From: Escherichia coli | GTDB lineage: Bacteria; Pseudomonadota; Gammaproteobacteria; Enterobacterales; Enterobacteriaceae | Length of the DNA stretch: 64,000 nt | Strand: one strand, 5' to 3' | NCBI RefSeq assembly: GCF_009931435.1 | Contig: NZ_CP043414.1 | In this document: positions 23,685 through 50,897 of the stretch, piece after piece | Layout of the letters: every line of letters begins with the position of its first letter | Position numbering within the stretch: the stretch's first letter is position 1 | The notes under the pieces: model-generated | Databases searched by the model: none | What the model was told of the DNA's origin: nothing | The model's input: the letters and a program-made list of their open reading frames with translations, nothing else | Translations under genes and position numbers: made by a program

Positions 23685-24275
<591 letters not shown>

Positions 24276-24467: not shown

Positions 24468-24824
24468 ATGAATAAGAATCTCATCCTCGCATTTGCATTA
24501 TTTTCCTTACCTGTATTTGCAGAAGAAGATCTGGGGCCAGGCAAATATGTTTGTGACATTAGGATTTCCAGCCTGGATACCGCTACTCAAATTCTGTCAA
24601 AATCCGCAACAGTTCTCGATAATGGAAACAATTTCATCGTTCAAATGCCAAATGGAGATCAATTGTACTCTCCAGATCTGGAAAATGTTGATGATGGTAT
24701 AAAACAAAAAGCAACAATAGGTGGAGTGACATTTATTCGTCGTCCAACTTTTAACGATCGCTTCATCGTGGAAGATGGAAATACAGGATTCTTCTATAAG
24801 ATGCGAAACTGCGAGAAGAAATAA
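24468..24824 (+). CDS. hypothetical secreted protein (118 aa, two Cys)
   Basis: N-terminal signal peptide MNKNLILAFALFSLPVFA; no family recognised. Confidence 0.55.
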   Translation: MNKNLILAFALFSLPVFAEEDLGPGKYVCDIRISSLDTATQILSKSATVLDNGNNFIVQMPNGDQLYSPDLENVDDGIKQKATIGGVTFIRRPTFNDRFIVEDGNTGFFYKMRNCEKK

Positions 24825-25112: not shown

Positions 25113-26039
25113 TCAATTTTCGAGTTTTACTCTTTTCTCCACCATAAAATCAATAAAAGCACGAACTTTAGAGGGCATTCTCACCCGTGATGAAACATAA
25201 ATATAAAATCCAGGAAATGAAACAGCCCAATCCTCAAGAATCGGCTGTAACTTGCCCGCATTGATATGTTCAGCGATTGCAAAATCCAGATGTTGAATGA
25301 TACCCGTTCCATTCAGCGCCATTCGTATCATGCTTTCGTCATCATTAGAAATATACTTACCTGAAACCTCTATTTCGAACTCTTCATTACCCCCCACAAC
25401 ATTAGAAAACTCCCATGCAGAGAGTGCACCGCTACTTTTATGCCGCAACCGAAGGCAATTATGGTTACTCAGTTCCTGAGGCGTTTCAGGAATACCGTGT
25501 TCTTTTAAATAATCTGGCGATGCCACAGTAACCAGTTTAATAAGCGGAGAAACAGGAACGGCAGTCATATGCTCATCCAGTCCTTGCTCAAGACGTATGC
25601 CCACATCACAGCCGTCCGCAATAATGTTAGATAAACCGTCATCCATAATGAGTTCTATCTTTGTTTTGGGGTAACGAGTAAGAAACTCGCCAATATGAGG
25701 CTCAACAAGCATCCGTGCTGCAACACGGGAGGAATTTATTCTCAACAGGCCTGTAGGTTCAAGTTGGGTATCACCAACATCTTTCAAAGCATCATCAATT
25801 TGCCCCAAAGCCGACACCAGCACTTCATACAGACGCTGTCCTTCCTCAGTAAGCGACATATTGCGGGTCGTACGGTATATCAGCTTGGTGTTAAGACGTT
25901 CCTCAAGAGATTTTAAATTCTGGGACAATGCGGCCCGCGTAATACCCATTTCAGAAGCGGCTCTGGAAAAACTGCCGGCACGAACAATCAGCGCAAACCA
26001 GGCAAGAGAAGGCAAAATTGAAGGCTCTATTTTCATCAT
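25113..26039 (-). CDS. LysR-family transcriptional regulator
   Basis: LysR HTH (GSFSRAASEMGITRAALSQNLKSLEERL); probable start at MMKIEPS; divergent from the hydrolase gene. Confidence 0.85.
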   Translation of the reverse strand: MMKIEPSILPSLAWFALIVRAGSFSRAASEMGITRAALSQNLKSLEERLNTKLIYRTTRNMSLTEEGQRLYEVLVSALGQIDDALKDVGDTQLEPTGLLRINSSRVAARMLVEPHIGEFLTRYPKTKIELIMDDGLSNIIADGCDVGIRLEQGLDEHMTAVPVSPLIKLVTVASPDYLKEHGIPETPQELSNHNCLRLRHKSSGALSAWEFSNVVGGNEEFEIEVSGKYISNDDESMIRMALNGTGIIQHLDFAIAEHINAGKLQPILEDWAVSFPGFYIYVSSRVRMPSKVRAFIDFMVEKRVKLEN

Positions 26040-26195
26040 TGTAAACCTTAACTTAACACTGTGATAGATATTAGACCATTGATGATAACCAATACAAGTC
26101 ATACTATTACGCCGTTCTCGATATGAACACAAATGCCAGTTGCGGATAATAGAAATGATATTTAAATCTGTTTAGGCAAATCCCTGGAGCTTGAA

Positions 26196-27116
26196 ATGAA
26201 AACGGTTTCGATAAAACACACTTACTGGGATATAGCTGCTGATATCTATTTCCCTGACGATTTTAATAGTGAAAAAAAGTATCCTGCCATTATCAGTGCC
26301 CATCCAATTGGAAGCTGCAAAGAACAGACATCGGGTAGTGTGTATGGTGCCGCCCTGGCAAAAGCTGGCTTTATCGTCATTGCTTTTGATGCCAGTTTTC
26401 AGGGAAGCAGCGGTGGAGAACCGCGTTATCTGGAAGATCCAACAATGCGAGTAAAAGACTTCAGCATTGTCGTTGATTACCTTACCACCTTACCTTACGT
26501 TGATGCCGGGCGTATTGGTGTACTGGGTATTTGTGGTGGAGGTGGATATGCCATTAATGCCGCAATGACAGAACGTCGGATTAAAGCCATTGGTACTGTC
26601 ACGGGTGCTAACTACGGGCGTCTTATGCGTGAGGGATTTACAGCGTTTAATCCTATCGGAGCACTCGAAGCAATGGCGCAACAAAGAACAGACGAAGCTA
26701 ACGGCGCAAAACTTCGCGTAGATGATTTGCTCCCTTCTTCTCCGGAAGCAGCTCTTGAAGCGGGATTAACAGAAATAGACCTTTTTGAAGCAACAGAATA
26801 TTATCGTTCGCCACGAGGCTGTGCGCCTAATGGGGTAAATCGTTCGCTATTTTCACATCAGACTGTTGCCGTGGGCTGGGATGCTTTTCATCTTGCAGAA
26901 GTCCTGTTAACTCAACCACTAATGGTTGTAGTGGGCGATAGAGTGGGCGCTTTTGGTGCCTATCGTGACGGCTGCGAAATTATTGGTCGTGCAGCCTCAA
27001 AACATAAAGAGTTGGTCGTGGTTGAAGGTTATTCACATTACGACCTGTATGATAAGCCAGAACCTGTGAAACAGGCGCTCGATAAATTAATTCCTTTTTA
27101 CAAAACACATTTGTAA
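26196..27116 (+). CDS. alpha/beta-fold hydrolase, no signal peptide
   Basis: 306-aa ORF with nucleophile-elbow-like LGICGGGGYA; paralogous to the ORF at 45817..46953. Confidence 0.8.
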   Translation: MKTVSIKHTYWDIAADIYFPDDFNSEKKYPAIISAHPIGSCKEQTSGSVYGAALAKAGFIVIAFDASFQGSSGGEPRYLEDPTMRVKDFSIVVDYLTTLPYVDAGRIGVLGICGGGGYAINAAMTERRIKAIGTVTGANYGRLMREGFTAFNPIGALEAMAQQRTDEANGAKLRVDDLLPSSPEAALEAGLTEIDLFEATEYYRSPRGCAPNGVNRSLFSHQTVAVGWDAFHLAEVLLTQPLMVVVGDRVGAFGAYRDGCEIIGRAASKHKELVVVEGYSHYDLYDKPEPVKQALDKLIPFYKTHL

Positions 27117-27288
27117 TAACCTTGCAGGGAGATTCATTATCTCCCTGAGATTTATCCTTTATTGACTACACGACAATAATAAAATTACTCAAAAAGAATT
27201 CTATTAAAGGAAAAAAGCATCAAAAAGTAGCAACTCAACTTATTAAGATTATACGCATTAAAATCAGATAAACATTTGAGGTATTGTT

Positions 27289-28431
27289 ATGATAAATAAA
27301 CACCCATCATTGTTTTCTCCTTTTATGCTGACAGAAAAAATAAAGCTACGTAATCGTATCGTTATGGCCCCTATGACGACCTGGTCAGCTAATCCTGATG
27401 GAACCATCTCTGAGCAAGAACTCGAATTTTATAAACGTCGCTCACAAAATGTTGGTTTAGTAATAACAGGATGCACCTATGTCACGCCAAGCGGCATTGG
27501 GTTTACTCATGAATTTGCCGCATATGACGACCGTTTCATTAACAGCCTTGAAAAGTTAGCTGCTGCAGCCAAAAGTGGCGGTGCTCCGGCTATTTTGCAG
27601 ATTTTCCACGCCGGTAATAAAGCCATCCCGGAGCTTGTGCCAAATTACGATGTTATTAGTGCCAGCGCATCAAGCGTAAAATCTGGTGACTTTATGAAGA
27701 GAGTGGTACAAAGCAGGGAAATGACTGAAAACGAAATTCAGGAAACCATTAGAGCATTCGGAGATGTCACAAAAAGGGCGATTAAAGCAGGTTTTGATGG
27801 CGTTGAACTTCATGGTGCGCACGGATTCCTTCTGCAGAATTTCTTCTCCCCTCTATTTAACCAGCGTAATGACCGATGGGGAGGAGATCTTGAAGGACGT
27901 ATGCGCTTCCCGCTGGCCGTATTACAGGAAGTAAAAAATGTAGTCTATGAATATGCGAAAAAGCCCTTTGCCATCGGTTACAGAATATCTCCTGAAGAAT
28001 CTGTAACAGGGGGGCTGCGGATAGAGGATACTTATAAACTCCTTGATCGGCTCATTTCATCCGGTATTTCGTATATACATACCTCGCTGGTCAGTATTAA
28101 CGATAGCTACCCTGTTGAGTCGCCAAATGGCCCCCGAACTATTGAATTGATTTTAAATCATATTGCAGGCAGAGTGCCGGTAATCGCCGCAGGTAAAATA
28201 CGCACACCTTCTCAGGCTCAAGAAGCAATTTCCGCTGGCCTGCCACTTGTTGCGATCGGTAAAGGGCTGGTGATAAATCCAGAATGGGTGACTTTAGCTG
28301 AATCAGGTAGAAGTCATGAAATTCAAACAGCCCTTAATCCACAACGCGTTCCTGAATTAACCATTCCGGATAAACTATGGGATCAAATTCAGGCATCGAA
28401 AGGAACTGGCTGGTTTCCGTTAATGGATTAA
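27289..28431 (+). CDS. NADH:flavin oxidoreductase (Old Yellow Enzyme family)
   Basis: 380-aa ORF; N-terminal LRNRIVMAPMTT and HGAHGFLLQNFFSP motifs typical of OYE/NemA-like enzymes. Confidence 0.85.
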   Translation: MINKHPSLFSPFMLTEKIKLRNRIVMAPMTTWSANPDGTISEQELEFYKRRSQNVGLVITGCTYVTPSGIGFTHEFAAYDDRFINSLEKLAAAAKSGGAPAILQIFHAGNKAIPELVPNYDVISASASSVKSGDFMKRVVQSREMTENEIQETIRAFGDVTKRAIKAGFDGVELHGAHGFLLQNFFSPLFNQRNDRWGGDLEGRMRFPLAVLQEVKNVVYEYAKKPFAIGYRISPEESVTGGLRIEDTYKLLDRLISSGISYIHTSLVSINDSYPVESPNGPRTIELILNHIAGRVPVIAAGKIRTPSQAQEAISAGLPLVAIGKGLVINPEWVTLAESGRSHEIQTALNPQRVPELTIPDKLWDQIQASKGTGWFPLMD

Positions 28432-44547: not shown

Positions 44548-45741
44548 CTAAAGCGCACCGGCCTTCTGGCGTGCGGTAACAAAGGTCAGTACGCCAGCGC
44601 AAAGGAGCAGCACGCTACTCATAGCAAACGTGCTCTGCCAGCCAAGGCGGTCAAACACAATGCCTCCTGCCGTTGATCCAAGGGCGATGGCGAGCTGAAT
44701 CACCGCGACCATGAGCCCGCCTCCGGCTTCGGCGTTGTCAGGCAACGTACGCGCAATCCATGTCCACCATCCGGTTGGCGCGGCGGTGGCCAGCATGCCC
44801 CAGAGTCCTAACAGCAGCGAGACCGTCCAGACGTGATGCCCGATAAGCATCAGACCGATAGCAATGACGGCCATAAGTCCGGGTATGGCCATCAGCGTGG
44901 GGTAGAATTTTCTGTTGAGAAATGCCGAAACAACCAGCGTGCCAATAAAACCGGCCACGCCGATAATCAGCAAAATCAACGACAAGCCTGAGGAATTAAC
45001 CCGTGTCACCGACTCCAGAAACGGGCGCACATAGGTGAATAGCGCAAACTGCCCCATGAAAAACAGGCCACAAGCTATCATGCCGACCACAACCATGCGG
45101 CGGCTAAATAAGCGGAATACCGTGCCAAATGACGTGTGGCTTTTATTCGCATCCATACTGGGCAGGCTGATGCACTGCCAGATAAAGGCGACAACCGCCA
45201 TGGGCACCAGGCACAAGAAAGCGCCTCGCCATCCGACCGTAGCCCCCAGATAGCTTCCCAGCGGCGCGGCCACGACCGTCGCCAGCGCATTACCGGCATT
45301 GAAAATCGCCAGCGCACGCGTGACCTGTTGCTGCGGCACCAGACGAATCGCCGTTGCCGCAGACATCGACCAGAATCCGCCAATAGCCACACCAATCATC
45401 GCACGACCGACCATATACATCAGATAACTGGAAGCCAGCGCAATAATAAGCCCCGAGACGGCCATCAGAACCGTCATCCCCAGCAGCAGGAACTTACGAT
45501 TCATCTTTCCAGCTAGCGTTGAAAGCGTCAGGCTGGTCAGAACCGCCAGCGCGCCGGAGATAGCAATCCCCTGCCCTGCCAGCCCCTCCGTCACGCCTAA
45601 ATCGCGGGTAATCGGCGTGAGCAGGCTGACGGGCATAAATTCAGAAGCAATCAGCACAAACACGCACAGGGTCATGGCAAAAATACCGCCCCAGTATGCG
45701 TGCTGATGATGAGGTGATGGTGTTTGGCTTAGTGTCGACAT
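44548..45741 (-). CDS. MFS transporter (12-TM, drug/sugar efflux-like)
   Basis: 397-aa highly hydrophobic ORF with MFS-like loop motifs. Confidence 0.85.
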   Translation of the reverse strand: MSTLSQTPSPHHQHAYWGGIFAMTLCVFVLIASEFMPVSLLTPITRDLGVTEGLAGQGIAISGALAVLTSLTLSTLAGKMNRKFLLLGMTVLMAVSGLIIALASSYLMYMVGRAMIGVAIGGFWSMSAATAIRLVPQQQVTRALAIFNAGNALATVVAAPLGSYLGATVGWRGAFLCLVPMAVVAFIWQCISLPSMDANKSHTSFGTVFRLFSRRMVVVGMIACGLFFMGQFALFTYVRPFLESVTRVNSSGLSLILLIIGVAGFIGTLVVSAFLNRKFYPTLMAIPGLMAVIAIGLMLIGHHVWTVSLLLGLWGMLATAAPTGWWTWIARTLPDNAEAGGGLMVAVIQLAIALGSTAGGIVFDRLGWQSTFAMSSVLLLCAGVLTFVTARQKAGAL

Positions 45742-45816
45742 AGTGAAATTTCACAAAGATCAGGATAAAAGCCACCGGCCATAGACCGGTGGCTTTGCAT
45801 CAATTCAGGAGAGGTT

Positions 45817-46953
45817 TTATTTCAGTTTGGTCTGGAAAAATTGTTCGAACTTCGCGAAAGGTATTTTTCCGGCCACGTTATCGTACAGGTCCACGTGATT
45901 TGCCCCTGGTACCACCACCAGCTCTTTGTCTTTACTGCCAACCGCCTTGTAAGCATCTTCAGCAAAATAGCGTGAATGCGCTTTCTCACCGGTCACAATC
46001 AGCGTCGGAATGGTGATTTCACTGGCGTAGCTCAACAGCGGCATATTCATAAATGACAGCGGCATCGTTGCCGTCCACGCCCCGGTAGAGTTAACGGAAC
46101 GTTCGTGGAAGCCGCGCGGCATGCGATAGTAGTCAAAGAACTCTTTCAGTACCGGATGAGGATTTGCCGGCAGCGTTTCTGGCAGAATACGCTCGCCCGC
46201 ACTGACCTTGCCGTTGCTGTCGACATTAATATCATGACCACCGTGAGCGAACGTTCCGCTCTGCGCATCCTTCCAGCGCTGTTCATTCAGATATTGCAGA
46301 ACAGCACGACGGTCGGCGGTAGAATAACGGTCTTTGCCATCCCCCACACCATGGCCCATCGCCCGGCTCATGTCATACATCACGCTGGTAGCTACCGCTT
46401 TAACGCGGGTATCCATCGCCGCGTCGTTCAGCGCCATGCCGCCCCAGCCACAAATACCGAGCAGCCCGATACGGTTGCGATCTACCTCTTTTTGCAGCCC
46501 TAAGAAATCCACCGCCGCGCTGAAATCTTCAGTGTTGATATCCGGTGAAGCGACGTTTCGCGGATAGCCGCCGCTTTCCCCGGTGTAAGAAGGATCGAAC
46601 GCCAGGGTAACAAACCCTCGTTCCGCCAGCGTCTGCGCATACAGGCCGCTGGATTGCTCTTTCACCGCGCCAAATGGCCCACTGACCGCAATCGCCGCCA
46701 GCTTGCGATCGCCACGGTCTTTAGGCAGGTAAAGATCGCCCACTAAGGTGATGCCATATCGGTTCGGGAACGAGACTTTACGGTGATCGACTTTCTGGCT
46801 CTCGGCGAACGTTTTATCCCATTTATCTGTCATGGACACAGGGGCATTAGGATTGGTTGAATCAGCATAACTCATTGTCGTGACTCCACTTAATGATGCG
46901 AAAAGCAGCATGGTCGGCATCGCGATTTTTAGCGTTCGGGTGAAGGCTTTCAT
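45817..46953 (-). CDS. secreted alpha/beta-fold hydrolase
   Basis: Track ORF 45817..46974; probable start at MKAFTRTLKIAMPTMLLFASLSGVTTMSYA (signal peptide); LGICGWGGMA motif; paralog of 26196..27116. Confidence 0.8.
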   Translation of the reverse strand: MKAFTRTLKIAMPTMLLFASLSGVTTMSYADSTNPNAPVSMTDKWDKTFAESQKVDHRKVSFPNRYGITLVGDLYLPKDRGDRKLAAIAVSGPFGAVKEQSSGLYAQTLAERGFVTLAFDPSYTGESGGYPRNVASPDINTEDFSAAVDFLGLQKEVDRNRIGLLGICGWGGMALNDAAMDTRVKAVATSVMYDMSRAMGHGVGDGKDRYSTADRRAVLQYLNEQRWKDAQSGTFAHGGHDINVDSNGKVSAGERILPETLPANPHPVLKEFFDYYRMPRGFHERSVNSTGAWTATMPLSFMNMPLLSYASEITIPTLIVTGEKAHSRYFAEDAYKAVGSKDKELVVVPGANHVDLYDNVAGKIPFAKFEQFFQTKLK

Positions 46954-47139
46954 AAAAATCCCCATAAAAAACAACAGAGAGATACAGGTTTCCGACGGAC
47001 AACACTGCGGTGCTTTACTTTGATGGGGTCATTATAGTGAGCAGAATTAGTGCTGATTAGGGGGCGATTAATGCTAAGATTAATACCATATTGTTATAAA
47101 TTAATGCGGAGATTGCCGGCATGAAGGGGGGATGTTTCA

Positions 47140-48024
47140 ATGGCGAAAAGGGAGAACTACAACGAGCTGTACCTGTTTATGCAGGTGGTGCGGGAAGGCA
47201 GCTTTACCGCAGCGGCTCAGCGGCTGGGTCTTGCTCAGTCAGGAGTCAGCCGTTCTGTTCGCGAGCTTGAAGAAAGGCTCGGCGTCCAGCTGCTGGTGCG
47301 CACCACGCGTAAACTGTCGCTGACGCAAGCAGGCGAGCAGCTCTACCAGAAGACGGCATCTGGATTTGAAATGTTAGATCTTGGGCTTGCCACACTGGCG
47401 CACTATCGAGAGACGCCCTCCGGCACGGTGCGTATCAATGCCAGCCAGCACGCGATTGATAAATGCCTGCTGCCAAAGCTGGCGGTATTTAAACAGCGAT
47501 ATCCTGATATCCGGCTTGAACTGATAAATGAGAGCCGGTTCGTCGATATCATCGAGGAAAGATTCGATGCTGGTGTCCGCCTGGGGCCTGAAGTCGGCCA
47601 GGGTATGGTCGCGGTACGCATCACGCCCGATATGGAGATGGCAATTGTGGGGACTCCGGAACATTTTCGTCGCTATGGTTTTCCGCAAACCCCGGCGGAT
47701 TTAAAGGCGCATCCCTGTATCGCCTATCAGTTTGCCGACGGCAGCGTATACCAGTGGGAACTCAATCAGGATGATAAAAAAATCACTCATCGCCCTGAAG
47801 GGCAATGGGCCCTATCCGACAGCTATATGGAAGCAGAAGCCGCACGGCTGGGCCTCGGATTGGCCTATGTTCCTGTTGAACTGGTTGCGGATGATTTAGA
47901 ACACGGTAAGCTTATCAGAGTGTTGCAGCGTTACAGCCTGCGAATGGAGGGATTGTTTCTCTATTACCCTCATCGCAACGTCTCCCCCGCTCTGCGGATG
48001 GTCATTGATACATTGAAAATCTGA
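47140..48024 (+). CDS. LysR-family transcriptional regulator
   Basis: 294-aa ORF with LysR HTH (GSFTAAAQRLGLAQSGVSRSVRELEERL). Confidence 0.85.
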   Translation: MAKRENYNELYLFMQVVREGSFTAAAQRLGLAQSGVSRSVRELEERLGVQLLVRTTRKLSLTQAGEQLYQKTASGFEMLDLGLATLAHYRETPSGTVRINASQHAIDKCLLPKLAVFKQRYPDIRLELINESRFVDIIEERFDAGVRLGPEVGQGMVAVRITPDMEMAIVGTPEHFRRYGFPQTPADLKAHPCIAYQFADGSVYQWELNQDDKKITHRPEGQWALSDSYMEAEAARLGLGLAYVPVELVADDLEHGKLIRVLQRYSLRMEGLFLYYPHRNVSPALRMVIDTLKI

Positions 48025-49176: not shown

Positions 49177-49914
49177 TCAGTTTGCAGATGCAGTAGGTCT
49201 GATGGTAATTTCGGTTGTATCAACGCTTTCGGGAGATTCAATAATATGCCTTACAGCACGGGCAATATCCGCGGGTTGAAGTGCAACAGAACGGTAGGCG
49301 TTCATTGACTTCATGGTTTCCACATGGGTAATGGTTGAAGCCAGTTCACTTTCTACAACCCCAGGATTTACGCAGGTCACACGGATTTTCGAGCTTTCCT
49401 GCCGTAAGCCATCAGAAATAGCCCGTACTGCAAATTTTGATGCGCAATAGACTGCGCCTGTGGGCACAACAGAAAGGGCACCAATAGAACCAAGATTGAT
49501 TATCTGACCGGAACCCTGTGCTTCCATCACCGGAAGTACAGCGCCAATTCCCCAAAGTACGCCTTTGATATTCACGTCAATAGTGAGCTCCCATTCATTT
49601 TGTTTTCCTGCTGCAAGCGGTGAAAGCGGCATAACGCCCGCATTATTGATAAGAACATCAACTCGCCCCCAGCTATCCAGCGCTGCTTGCACGAAATCTG
49701 CCATGGACTGTCGGTCTGTGACATCCAACTCCCGCGCTTTAGCAATTCCTCCTGCGCGGCAGATTTCTTTTGCAATGGCTTCGATACGCTCAAGTCTGCG
49801 TGCTCCCAGTAAAACCTTTGCACCTGCCGTTCCCAGCTCTCTGGCAATACCTTCCCCAATACCACTTGATGCGCCGGTGATTAATATGACCTTATCCATT
49901 ACGTTCTCCTTCAA
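49177..49914 (-). CDS. short-chain dehydrogenase/reductase (SDR)
   Basis: 245-aa ORF with TGASSGIG Rossmann motif and NNAG. Confidence 0.88.
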   Translation of the reverse strand: MKENVMDKVILITGASSGIGEGIARELGTAGAKVLLGARRLERIEAIAKEICRAGGIAKARELDVTDRQSMADFVQAALDSWGRVDVLINNAGVMPLSPLAAGKQNEWELTIDVNIKGVLWGIGAVLPVMEAQGSGQIINLGSIGALSVVPTGAVYCASKFAVRAISDGLRQESSKIRVTCVNPGVVESELASTITHVETMKSMNAYRSVALQPADIARAVRHIIESPESVDTTEITIRPTASAN

Positions 49915-49997: not shown

Positions 49998-50897
49998 ATG
50001 AAAATCGATCTTAATCTTTTACCCATTTTTATCGCGGTAGCAGAAGAGAGTAATTTCAGTAAAGCCGCCGCACGACTGGGCGTTACCCGTTCAGCGGTCA
50101 GTCAGGGAATAAGACGTCTTGAAGATGCATTCGGGACAATGCTTGTAATGCGGACCACGCGCTCAGTTAATTTGACGGAAGCGGGAGAACGGCTGCATAA
50201 ATCGTTGTCATTACCTTTATCCGGTATTGAGGCAGCGTTCGAAGAGATGGTCTCTGACCATGTACCACGTGGACATCTCAGAATCGCGGTGACGTCGATA
50301 GCAGAAGAATTTCTTTCAGGTCCGCTAATCGCTTCGTTTGCAGCTGCCAATCCAGCCGTTACGCTTGATATTGTTGTCACGGATGAGGAATTCGATATCG
50401 TTGCCGCAGGTTACGATGCTGGCGTAAGGCTCGGAGAGGTCATTGAAAAAGACATGATTGCTGTTCCCCTTACCGGTAAGCAGCGTGAGATGGTCGTTGC
50501 CTCTCCCTCCTATCTCGCAGCCAACAGCACACCTGTTCATCCGCGCGAACTTGTGAATCATAAGTGTATCGGCTGGCGTCAGTCCCCGGAGGTTGCGCCT
50601 TATCGCTGGCCATTTGAAGAAAACGGTAGAGCTTTCGACCTTGCGATTGAACCGCAGATTACGACGAATGATCTGCGTCTGATGTTGAGGCTGGCTCTTG
50701 CCGGCGGAGGAATAACAATTGCCACTCAGGAAACGTTCAGGCCATATATTGAAAGCGGTAAGCTTGTATCGCTGCTTGATGACTTTCTTCCACAATTTCC
50801 GGGCTTCTATCTGTATTTCCCACAGCGTCGCAATATTGCACCAAAGCTCCGCGCCCTGATTGACCACGTCAAGGAATGGCGGCAGCAATTGGCTTAA
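49998..50897 (+). CDS. LysR-family transcriptional regulator
   Basis: 299-aa ORF with LysR HTH; divergent from the SDR gene. Confidence 0.88.
   Translation: MKIDLNLLPIFIAVAEESNFSKAAARLGVTRSAVSQGIRRLEDAFGTMLVMRTTRSVNLTEAGERLHKSLSLPLSGIEAAFEEMVSDHVPRGHLRIAVTSIAEEFLSGPLIASFAAANPAVTLDIVVTDEEFDIVAAGYDAGVRLGEVIEKDMIAVPLTGKQREMVVASPSYLAANSTPVHPRELVNHKCIGWRQSPEVAPYRWPFEENGRAFDLAIEPQITTNDLRLMLRLALAGGGITIATQETFRPYIESGKLVSLLDDFLPQFPGFYLYFPQRRNIAPKLRALIDHVKEWRQQLA

Follow-up and report, generated by a model that had tools for sequence, protein, structure and literature searches.

The two alpha/beta hydrolase genes in the window, the whole stretch of 64,000 nucleotides of Escherichia coli DNA that was analysed, are probably anciently diverged members of one enzyme family, each brought to this region in its own LysR-controlled cassette. 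Judged by sequence comparison, the two proteins, here called H1 and H2, are true paralogs within the YcjY/PA2218 family of alpha/beta hydrolases, in which the predicted nucleophile is a cysteine and not a serine. By the same comparisons, their paralogy and their difference in compartment are real, and both are older than E. coli. The features of the two loci are collected in Table 1.

Table 1. Position and basis of the features assigned at the H1 and H2 loci (positions in the window)
Feature	Position	Strand	Description or basis
LysR1, LysR-type regulator, 308 aa, divergent from H1	25113..26039	-	Pfam HTH_1 and LysR_substrate
LysR1/H1 divergent control region, 156 bp	26040..26195	.	Sequence inspection
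H1, Cys-nucleophile alpha/beta hydrolase, predicted cytoplasmic	26196..27116	+	306 aa; YcjY/PA2218 family, subfamily A
H1 Cys113 codon, nucleophile elbow G-I-C-G-G	26532..26534	+	Alignment column
H1 His281 codon, H-x-D-L-Y-D motif	27036..27038	+	Alignment column; putative catalytic role, from position alone
Stem-loop just past the H1 stop, possible weak terminator	27125..27147	+	Fold -15.3 kcal/mol, z -2.9, then a weak U-tract
Old-Yellow-Enzyme-type NADH:flavin oxidoreductase (OYE), 380 aa, downstream of H1	27289..28431	+	Pfam Oxidored_FMN, E 2e-77
MFS transporter, 397 aa, downstream of H2	44548..45741	-	Pfam MFS_1
Strong terminator-like hairpin with UUUUAU after it, separating H2 from the MFS gene	45764..45801	-	RNA fold
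H2, Cys-nucleophile alpha/beta hydrolase, predicted exported	45817..46953	-	378-aa precursor; subfamily C, PA2218-like
H2 His353 codon (N-H-V-D-L-Y-D)	45895..45897	-	Alignment; putative catalytic role, from position alone
H2 Cys168 codon (G-I-C-G-W-G)	46450..46452	-	Alignment
H2 predicted signal peptide, codons 1-30 (MKAFTRTLKIAMPTMLLFASLSGVTTMSYA)	46864..46953	-	Conservation and coding signature
H2/LysR2 divergent control region, 186 bp	46954..47139	.	Three ATTAAT palindromes: 47067, 47079, 47100
LysR2, LysR-type regulator, 294 aa, divergent from H2	47140..48024	+	Pfam HTH_1 and LysR_substrate

Family membership and predicted catalytic residues

Both open reading frames lie where a preliminary description of this DNA had placed them, the second on the minus strand, which had been left unstated. 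The pairwise alignment it had proposed returned 105 identities over 323 positions (BLASTP; 33% identity, 48% positives, E 1e-44), a similarity far greater than chance would give and above the 25% it had named as the threshold for dismissing the relationship, and spans residues 13-306 of H1 and 70-377 of H2. The collinear motifs on which it had based the comparison are both present in this alignment: LGICGGGGYA in H1 against LGICGWGGMA in H2, and AFDASFQGSSGGEPR against AFDPSYTGESGGYPR. Putative catalytic positions are shared as well, with the nucleophile column falling on C113 of H1 and C168 of H2, and the histidine of the H-x-D-L-Y-D motif on H281 and H353.

Both proteins match alpha/beta-hydrolase profiles above the curated cutoffs. 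For H1, these are Pfam Peptidase_S15 (40 bits against a cutoff of 23), Hydrolase_4 (28 against 27), Abhydrolase_6 (27 against 26.3) and DLH (25 against 21), the last being a marginal match to profile positions 12-123 of 217, about half of the model. For H2, they are a PETase-like profile (35.9 against 28), Hydrolase_4 (30 against 27) and DLH (21.2 against 21), which is again marginal and covers about half of the model. The top NCBIfam match for H1 (E 1e-20) and for H2 (E 2e-18) is the UilS family (NF047920); UilS is a cytoplasmic, lactone-hydrolysing alpha/beta hydrolase that acts as an acyl-homoserine lactonase (PMC11633161). Membership of this lactonase family was rejected, as the alignments are partial and reach 74.3 bits (H1) and 67.2 bits (H2) against a cutoff of 400.

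The closest solved structures are E. coli YcjY for H1 (PDB 5XB6; E 3.7e-67, residues 12-304) and Pseudomonas aeruginosa PA2218 for H2 (PDB 2HDW; E 7.8e-125, residues 23-375), both from structural genomics, and K-E-Q, S-G-G-x-P-R, G-I-C and H-x-D-L-Y-D stand out as invariant motifs in common. YcjY has the family and fold of both hydrolases and, at 306 aa, the length of H1, with identities of 41% to H1 and 34% to H2. Like them, it combines an elbow cysteine (GICAG) and the H-x-D-L-Y-D motif with a divergent LysR regulator (PgrR/YcjZ); unlike them, it is a member of subfamily B, separate from theirs, and has a serine at the canonical acid position, where H1 has an aspartate. PA2218 resembles H2 in its GICGWGG elbow, in a WDKTF motif near the mature N terminus, in its N-terminal extension and in a near-full-length alignment, whereas H2 has an extra cap-region insertion of ~17 residues, around residues 236-262.

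How general is the cysteine? Among 73 diverse family representatives, the nucleophile column holds Cys in 65 and Ser in just two, and the histidine of H-x-D-L-Y-D is kept in 67. The canonical acid position is D248 in H1 and E323 in H2, and across the 73 representatives it is S in 28, E in 17 and D in 12; because this position varies, a classical Cys-His-Asp triad in the YcjY/PA2218 family is unproven. Alternative acids that are nearly invariant are E43, D65 and D283 (H1 numbering). For the interpretation of the genome, the assignment changes little, since these are two accessory genes already annotated as 'alpha/beta hydrolase', in a family with solved structures. A family nucleophile that is Cys instead of Ser is nevertheless a useful point for function discovery, and with up to three LysR-paired members per E. 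coli strain (H1, H2 and YcjY) the family offers a tractable target for it.

Predicted cellular location of the two hydrolases

One hydrolase had been described as cytoplasmic and the other as secreted, and this division held. H1 begins at the first start codon past an in-frame stop, which makes an N-terminal extension impossible; a TGGAG Shine-Dalgarno-like motif lies 6 nt upstream of its ATG. By inspection, the N terminus of H2, MKAFTRTLKIAMPTMLLFASLSGVTTMSYA followed by DS, has a basic n-region (K2, R6, K9), a hydrophobic core that spans residues 10-26 and an S-Y-A just ahead of D31, where the signal would be cleaved. On these features and on its conservation, H2 is taken to carry a Sec-type signal peptide.

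But could this stretch be an untranslated leader, with H2 translated from Met27 as a 352-aa protein that is not exported? PGAP does start the gene at M27 in strain 19KM1831 (1059 bp), 352-aa versions from Serratia, Buttiauxella and Citrobacter are found in RefSeq, and a GGAG motif lies 8 nt upstream of the Met27 codon. Against this, the DNA in question looks like coding sequence: in an alignment across 14 genera, the signal-peptide codons are conserved with in-frame 3-codon indels, and codons 1-26 retain their basic and hydrophobic character. Substitutions in codons 1-26/30 are biased to the third position, a periodicity that is absent from the 60 nt upstream, and a Shine-Dalgarno motif, GGGGA or AAGGAG, precedes the Met1 ATG in all four loci compared.

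The relatives of H2 also speak against a leader. In clade C, the H2 clade, 12 of the 13 members sampled have signal-like N termini, including those from Rhizobiales, Gastranaerophilales and Fretibacterium; those of the distant members are unrelated yet still signal-like, some of them Tat-like. The H1-type members sampled contained none, as judged by a heuristic together with a check by eye; the heuristic is crude and gave false positives on the first beta-strand (...SLSAVIYFPP) of YcjY-type proteins and one H1-type protein, which were discounted by eye. Cysteine content follows the same line. C168 is the sole cysteine of the entire H2 protein, the catalytic Cys stands alone in eight of the nine clade-C domains examined, and the exceptional domain, with four Cys, belongs to the one member that has no signal-like N terminus. 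We consider a start at Met27, and with it a non-exported H2, very unlikely, and keep to an exported H2. Automatic annotation cuts H2 to Met27 inconsistently and thereby loses the signal peptide, which would mislead analyses based on localisation.

LysR-paired cassettes and their probable origin

As had been described, each hydrolase adjoins its own LysR gene; both regulators are divergent from their hydrolase and contain HTH_1 and LysR_substrate domains, and PGAP predicts the same 927-bp LysR1 gene in strain 19KM1831. A divergent pair of LysR and hydrolase is the commonest bacterial regulatory arrangement. In the H2/LysR2 control region, an ATTAAT-N6-ATTAAT element looks like, and may be, a LysR T-N11-A site; a further ATTAAT lies 33 bp away from the first copy. 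The LysR1/H1 control region contained weak inverted repeats alone, with no confident LysR box and no convincing dyad. On the H2 side of its control region there is also a TATAAT hexamer with a poor -35. Consensus scans for sigma-70 promoters and for terminators returned no more hits at either locus than in shuffled sequence, and the terminator scan missed the hairpins that RNA folding detected.

The downstream genes differ between the two cassettes. H1 is followed by the OYE gene, and the order LysR, hydrolase, OYE is the same in E. albertii; H2 is followed by the MFS gene, whose best NCBIfam match is NepI-like and below the cutoff. A protein match of 99% had raised E. albertii as a possible source of the window, a reading that was rejected on DNA identity, which is only 85-88% to E. 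albertii and 98-99% to E. coli. The hairpin between H2 and the MFS gene folds at -25.3 kcal/mol (z -4.7), and none of 200 shuffles folded as well. Because terminator-like hairpins follow both hydrolase genes, co-transcription of H1 with the OYE gene and of H2 with the MFS gene is uncertain.

Elsewhere, H1 orthologs remain grouped with a divergent regulator and an NAD(P)H reductase, which is mostly NmrA-like. LysR, hydrolase and NmrA-like reductase occur together in Paraburkholderia, Burkholderia, Stenotrophomonas and Myxococcus, and in Paraburkholderia nodosa the order is hydrolase-hydrolase-NmrA and then OYE. In many Proteobacteria, a B-type and an A-type hydrolase gene lie in tandem behind a single LysR. 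The order LysR-hydrolase-MFS of the H2 cassette is kept in Klebsiella, Dickeya and Yersinia, and its chromosomal neighbourhoods differ across Enterobacterales; in Bosea and Rhizobium, an MFS gene adjoins the H2-type hydrolase, upstream in both, with an adjacent LysR in Bosea only. In an unbiased census of neighbours, 21 of 38 A/B-type loci had a LysR gene beside the hydrolase, as did 7 of 13 C-type loci; an NmrA-like reductase was present in 12 of the A/B loci.

Where, then, did the pair come from? The preliminary description had seen in it a duplication followed by divergence of compartment. The two proteins are indeed paralogs in different compartments, but an event within E. coli or the Enterobacteriaceae, in which a hydrolase, with or without its LysR, was copied and one copy then acquired a signal peptide and became periplasmic, fits the data poorly. 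H1 and H2 are homologous, lie just ~19 kb apart in one chromosome region, and have regulators that both fall in the broad YafC-like subgroup, all of which speaks for a local duplication. However, each hydrolase is two to three times more similar to proteins from distant phyla than to the other. Orthologs of H1 that are 76-84% identical to it, against 33% for H2, occur in Beta-, Gamma- and Alphaproteobacteria, Actinobacteria and one Firmicute, among them proteins from Burkholderia, Cupriavidus, Stenotrophomonas, Rhodococcus and Mycobacterium. Orthologs of H2 are 85-96% identical throughout Enterobacterales, and its homologs in Rhizobiales 57-60%; PA2218, too, is far nearer to H2 (E 7.8e-125) than H1 is.

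The neighbour-joining tree separates clade C from all other sequences with 100% bootstrap and nests H1 among Burkholderia and Myxococcus sequences; the genome scan took the best 80 loci by match to H1, with clade C under-sampled. Since signal-like N termini are found in 12 of 13 clade-C members, from several phyla, export predates arrival in E. coli. The cassettes also differ in GC content by ~10 points (44-46% for H1, 54-57% for H2), and in other genera the H2 cassette lies in unrelated neighbourhoods. Among 5426 complete E. coli genomes, the H1 cassette is present in 2105 and the H2 cassette in 912.

The regulators lead to the same answer. LysR1 is 51-57% identical to the LysRs that adjoin H1-type hydrolases in Burkholderia, Stenotrophomonas and Myxococcus, and LysR2 reaches 79-89% with its counterparts in the Klebsiella, Dickeya and Yersinia versions of the cassette. 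LysR1 and LysR2 share only 29%. Within the window itself, LysR1 has a nearer relative in a third LysR (49998..50897; 34%), and K-12 PgrR is 41% identical to LysR2, so that the adjacency of LysR genes is no evidence for a duplicated module. Co-duplication of LysR and hydrolase was rejected on these identities. Taken with the tree, these comparisons make a duplication within E. coli or the Enterobacteriaceae extremely improbable; the separate arrival of two old family members remains the likely history.

The dN/dS is 0.007 for H1, measured against the E. albertii ortholog, and 0.044 for H2, and both genes are therefore functional. By this measure, purifying selection on H1 is extreme, and identity stays at 77-83% from E. 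coli to Rhodococcus and Propionispora, or ~80% across phyla. Such constraint, which is the single notable point of the whole comparison and places H1 among the most constrained accessory proteins likely to be met, argues for a specific and important substrate.

Proposed chemistry and competing roles

For the chemistry of H1 and H2, our best guess is that a Cys-His pair hydrolyses a small ester or lactone. A His-activated Cys thiolate would attack the carbonyl of an ester, lactone or thioester, forming an acyl-thioenzyme on the Cys that water would then resolve. Each LysR would sense the small-molecule substrate or product and activate the divergent hydrolase promoter. In the cytoplasm, the product of H1, probably an alpha,beta-unsaturated or quinone-like carbonyl, would pass to the adjacent NAD(P)H reductase for reduction; in the periplasm, H2 would act by the same mechanism on a compound that is exported or comes from outside, and the MFS protein would carry its substrate or product over the inner membrane. 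Tentatively, and with low confidence, we extend this to a horizontally mobile two-step module of an H1-type hydrolase and its adjacent NAD(P)H reductase, in which hydrolysis would be followed by reduction of a reactive metabolite of wide occurrence, be it a lactone, an ester or a derivative of a quinone; strains with H1, H2 and YcjY would then apply the same unusual Cys-hydrolase chemistry on both sides of the inner membrane, each enzyme with a dedicated LysR sensor, three in all.

The logic of H1 and its reductase would be analogous to that of chlorocatechol pathways, in which dienelactone hydrolase and maleylacetate reductase are placed under ClcR/TfdR-type LysR regulators. Common to both, on the proposed reading of H1, are a Cys-nucleophile alpha/beta hydrolase, an NAD(P)H-dependent reductase that takes up its unsaturated product, and a LysR activator in divergent orientation. 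They differ in that the DLH match of H1 is confined to the N-terminal half, catechol dioxygenase and cycloisomerase genes are absent nearby, and the reductase beside H1-type hydrolases is an OYE or NmrA-like protein, whereas maleylacetate reductase is of the iron-type alcohol dehydrogenase family. The likeness, drawn by analogy, is one of shared logic and probably not of membership.

Instead of hydrolases, H1 and H2 could be acyltransferases or condensing enzymes that work through a covalent Cys-acyl, in the manner of fungal polyketide transferases or PHA-synthase-like enzymes. The UniProt grouping of YcjY in the 'polyketide transferase af380 family' is a lead in this direction, and the fungal relatives af380 (A. 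fumigatus) and GrgF are presumably acyltransferases and not hydrolases. There is weak similarity to GrgF (PDB 6LZH), but it is limited to the N-terminal half (E 1e-3 to 2e-7); a literature search on GrgF and af380 yielded fumagillin reviews only, with no usable mechanistic text. From its GXCXG motif, YcjY has been put forward as a candidate short-chain PHB polymerase (PMC3709699). The genomic context offers little to such an enzyme: the partners are reductases, transporters and regulators, with no acyl-carrier, CoA-ligase or PKS genes nearby, and a periplasmic H2 would have no access to CoA thioesters. We hold the acyltransferase reading to be unlikely and retain hydrolysis as the working assignment.

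The YcjY operon suggests a different role again, in which the family would act on peptides, as peptidases or amidases tied to the recycling of peptidoglycan peptides. The K-12 genes ycjY and mpaA lie in one operon, and ycjY is regulated by its LysR partner PgrR, which is reported to repress genes for the recycling of peptidoglycan peptides (PMC5934670); over-expression of YcjY leads to filamentation (PMC3614548), and Peptidase_S15 is the top Pfam match of H1. That match is, however, limited to the generic N-terminal half of the fold. The linkage to mpaA looks secondary, as ymjC, which lies downstream of ycjY and between it and mpaA, is a remnant of the NmrA-like reductase found after the hydrolase in other bacteria, and the partners that recur across taxa are reductases and not peptidoglycan enzymes. 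A peptide-directed function of the family as a whole is thus distinctly improbable, and a small ester or lactone remains our preferred substrate. For bacterial family members, the literature searched contained just the GXCXG-based prediction and the over-expression phenotype, both for YcjY, and searches on PA2218, 5XB6 and 2HDW returned nothing on function and, for PA2218, no publication. The role of PgrR nevertheless suggests that at least one subfamily has a physiology of its own.

Two homologous hydrolases and their compartments

H1, a cytoplasmic alpha/beta hydrolase, and H2, a relative with a signal-peptide-like N-terminus, lie on an E. coli chromosome segment that carries bet genes, fdeC, ykgM/ykgO, ecp and pao; its DNA matches that of many complete E. 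coli genomes at 98-99% identity, against only 85-88% for E. albertii. The preliminary description regarded the two as homologs, each with its own LysR regulator. This observation is confirmed by a BLASTP alignment of 323 columns (E 1e-44; 33% identity, 48% positives) that takes in practically the whole catalytic domain, by the quoted motifs, both of which are present and collinear in H1 and H2, and by the divergent LysR gene that each hydrolase faces. The identity thus lies above the limit of about 25% that the preliminary description had set for itself.

Coordinates of the features discussed
Feature	Coordinates	Strand	Remarks
Truncated aldo/keto reductase ORF	23700..24275		191 aa; upstream of the 118-aa ORF
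Replacement segment	24262..24942		681 bp
118-aa ORF	24468..24824		within the replacement segment; signal-like N-terminus
LysR1	25113..26039	-	HTH_1 and LysR_substrate domains; divergent from H1, gap 156 bp
H1	26196..27116	+	306 aa
OYE flavin reductase	27289..28431		H1 cassette
MFS transporter	44548..45741		H2 cassette
H2	45817..46953	-	378 aa; strand not given in the preliminary description
H2 codons 1-27	46873..46953		start annotated inconsistently among public records
ATTAAT palindromes	47067..47105		starts 47067, 47079 and 47100
LysR2	47140..48024	+	HTH_1 and LysR_substrate domains; divergent from H2, gap 186 bp
SDR oxidoreductase gene	49177..49914	-	divergent partner of the third LysR
Third LysR	49998..50897	+	divergent from the SDR oxidoreductase gene

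The proposed difference in compartment also holds. The H1 start, preceded by TGGAG, is the first start codon following an in-frame stop, which makes an N-terminal signal impossible. H2 begins with MKAFTRTLKIAMPTMLLFASLSGVTTMSYA, followed, after the likely cleavage site, by DSTNP: a basic n-region and a hydrophobic core, then S-Y-A. In strain 19KM1831, PGAP places the start at Met27 (352 aa) and thereby removes the signal segment; some records of Serratia, Buttiauxella and Citrobacter also have this form, most records the 378-aa one. Several lines of evidence argue for the long form. The signal-peptide character of residues 1-30 is kept across 14 genera, with in-frame three-codon indels, and in DNA comparisons codons 1-26 behave like downstream codons, with substitutions biased to the third position (e.g. 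1, 2, 10 and 4, 4, 12 at positions 1, 2 and 3), a bias absent from the 60 nt upstream of Met1. Each of the four loci compared has a Shine-Dalgarno-like motif ahead of Met1 (GGGGA, in Dickeya AAGGAG), and distant members of the H2-type clade (C) have N-termini that are unrelated in sequence yet signal-like. Such N-termini are found in 12 of the 13 clade-C members sampled and, as real signal-like sequences, in none of 38 H1-type (A) members. We accept on these sequence features that H2 is probably exported to the periplasm. H2 has a single cysteine, the catalytic one, and H1 has four; among nine clade-C domains examined, extra cysteines occur only in the member without a signal-like N-terminus. 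That exception is the Coriobacteriaceae protein (L082), with four cysteines. Among the proteins compared (H2, L006, L008, L057, L061, L080-L082 and L089), the exported members have the catalytic residue as the only cysteine of the mature domain.

Separate arrival of two ancient subfamilies

The preliminary description had further proposed duplication followed by compartment divergence. Paralogy, LysR pairing and different compartments all stand, but the duplication did not take place in this lineage. Identity to E. coli YcjY is 41% for H1 and 34% for H2. Proteins 76-84% identical to H1 occur in Paraburkholderia, Burkholderia, Cupriavidus, Massilia, Pseudomonas and Stenotrophomonas as well as Shewanella, Hyphomonas, Rhodococcus, Mycobacterium and Propionispora; those in Actinobacteria and a Firmicute lie at 77-83%. 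A local duplication is thus contradicted by the far lower identity of H1 to H2 (33%). H2, in turn, is 85-96% identical to proteins of Serratia, Klebsiella, Buttiauxella, Kluyvera, Citrobacter, Yersinia, Dickeya, Erwinia, Rahnella and Hafnia, and 51-60% identical to homologs of Rhizobiales, Gastranaerophilales, Fretibacterium and Coriobacteriaceae. In a neighbour-joining tree, the only method used (49 domains, 298 columns, 100 bootstraps), clade C splits from all other domains at 100% bootstrap, which likewise speaks against a local duplication; clade A receives 62%, with H1 beside Burkholderia, Stenotrophomonas and Myxococcus sequences, and the YcjY-type sequences (B) form a third group. H1 and H2 are therefore ancient subfamilies that were acquired separately, and both their split and the gain of export lie deep in the history of the family.

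Against a window GC content of 49.8%, the H1 cassette (LysR1, H1, OYE; 25113..28431) has 44-46% and the H2 cassette (LysR2, H2, MFS; 44548..48024) 54-57%, a contrast consistent with separate horizontal origins. Of 5426 complete E. coli genomes, 2105 contain the complete H1 locus, 912 the complete H2 locus and about 900 the whole segment bearing both. In a related strain tRNA-Thr and an integrase remnant are found close to the H2 cassette, and the LysR-hydrolase-MFS order recurs in Klebsiella, Dickeya and Yersinia within unrelated neighbourhoods.

Scanning one genome per species gave 79 loci, annotated with small profile HMMs and unbiased clustering of neighbours; because they were ranked by similarity to H1, clade C is under-sampled. 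Among the loci best matching H1, the commonest neighbour is a divergent LysR (21 of 38 A/B-type and 7 of 13 C-type loci), replaced outside Proteobacteria by AraC_N-type, MmyB-like (MLTR) or HxlR regulators. The LysRs of the family form cognate lineages: LysR1-like regulators (51-57% identity to LysR1) go with A-type hydrolases that stand alone and with some tandems, PgrR-like ones (59-88%) with B+A tandems, and LysR2-like ones (79-89%) with the clade-C cassette. This conserved pairing of regulator and enzyme is probably functional. It is not evidence that the modules duplicated together: LysR1 and LysR2 are only 29% identical, below the 34% between LysR1 and the third LysR of the window, and LysR2 shares 41% with K-12 PgrR. 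Divergent pairs of a LysR and an enzyme are in any case frequent in this region.

Upstream of a TATAAT hexamer whose -35 is poor, the H2-LysR2 spacer contains three perfect ATTAAT palindromes, two of them arranged as ATTAAT-N6-ATTAAT, and two copies, 33 bp apart, of the 15-nt unit ATTAATGC(T/G)(A/G)AGATT. The repeats are a candidate LysR2 operator, and the pattern would fit an activator-dependent H2 promoter; nothing clearly comparable to this array was found in the H1-LysR1 spacer. Each hydrolase stop has a stable hairpin behind it (-15.3 kcal/mol after H1; -25.3 kcal/mol, plus UUUUAU, after H2), leaving co-transcription with OYE or MFS uncertain.

Catalytic residues, neighbours and possible function

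H1 and H2 belong to a known kind of protein, with solved homologs and routine annotation. Both score above several alpha/beta-hydrolase Pfam cutoffs, and their nearest solved structures are two structural-genomics entries, 5XB6 for H1 (E. coli YcjY, E 4e-67) and 2HDW for H2 (P. aeruginosa PA2218, E 8e-125); a literature search turned up no paper on the function of either protein. Among 1.84 billion representatives scanned, 250 clusters (50% identity level) match at E<=1e-30, a number that rises to 1626 at E<=1e-10. The nucleophile elbow reads G-I-C-G-G in H1 (C113) and G-I-C-G-W in H2 (C168), so that the predicted nucleophile is cysteine, not serine. Across 73 sequences (70 full-length representatives and three references), this column holds Cys in 65 and Ser in 2, the H-x-D-L-Y-D column holds His in 67, and there is almost no variation in K-E-Q, D65, S-G-G-x-P-R and R128. 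No residue is conserved at the canonical acid position following beta7, where 28 sequences have Ser, 17 Glu and 12 Asp; H1 has Asp there, H2 Glu and YcjY Ser. A UilS-type AHL lactonase identity was ruled out by score.

A-type hydrolases have an OYE flavin reductase as partner in E. coli, E. albertii and Paraburkholderia nodosa, and among the loci best matching H1, an NmrA-like NAD(P)H-binding protein (~210 aa) adjoins them, on either side, at 12. K-12 ymjC, just downstream of ycjY, is an N-terminal NmrA-like remnant (54% over 46 aa, E 6e-11), and the hydrolase-reductase pairing thus also underlies the YcjY locus; ymjC and ymjD occupy L010 4681..4934. The equivalent Pseudocitrobacter locus has a PgrR-like LysR, a YcjY-like (92%) and an H1-like (63%) hydrolase and an NmrA-like gene. 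The remnant and this gene order suggest that both the reductase and an A-type paralog were lost from K-12. Such B+A tandems (L017, L021, L023-L025, L027-L031, L035, L041, L042, L048 and others) occur in many Proteobacteria, mostly with a single divergent LysR, and in some Bacteroidota. In Gastranaerophilales, a distant YcjY/H1-like gene adjoins an H2-type exported gene. The best match of the H2-cassette MFS protein is NepI-like, below cutoff.

The data cover gene anatomy and its conservation only; substrate, chemistry and regulation we infer. A LysR would sense the substrate and activate the divergent hydrolase promoter, and Cys-His catalysis would hydrolyse a small ester, lactone or thioester via an acyl-thioenzyme. 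In the cytoplasm, the adjoining reductase would then process the product, while periplasmic H2, coupled to the MFS transporter, would have an external or exported compound as its substrate. Dienelactone hydrolase works with maleylacetate reductase under ClcR/TfdR, similarly combining a Cys-nucleophile hydrolase, a carbonyl/alkene reductase and a divergent LysR; the analogy is one of pattern only, as H1 and H2 are not members of that system. The neighbour census across taxa lends less support to two other readings. The GXCXG motif (PMC3709699) and weak similarity to GrgF would suit an acyltransferase or PHB-synthase-like family, and the PgrR regulon (PMC5934670), filamentation upon YcjY over-expression (PMC3614548) and a Peptidase_S15 match a peptidase in peptidoglycan-peptide recycling.

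Selection on H1 and a nearby replaced segment

Between H1 and its E. albertii ortholog (L011 4001..4918), dS is 0.58, dN 0.004 and dN/dS 0.007, about ten-fold tighter than for the neighbouring LysR1 (0.082) and OYE (0.069); H2 versus Klebsiella gives 0.044. Together with ~80% identity across phyla, this marks H1 as an unusually constrained accessory enzyme. We consider this extreme purifying selection the most interesting fact of the analysis, and H1 and H2 targets of modest upside for function discovery.

Upstream of the H1 cassette, the 118-aa product encoded in the replacement segment has no Pfam match. The segment takes the place of ~2.3 kb that in strain 19KM1831 hold a LysR gene, one aldo/keto reductase and the end of another.
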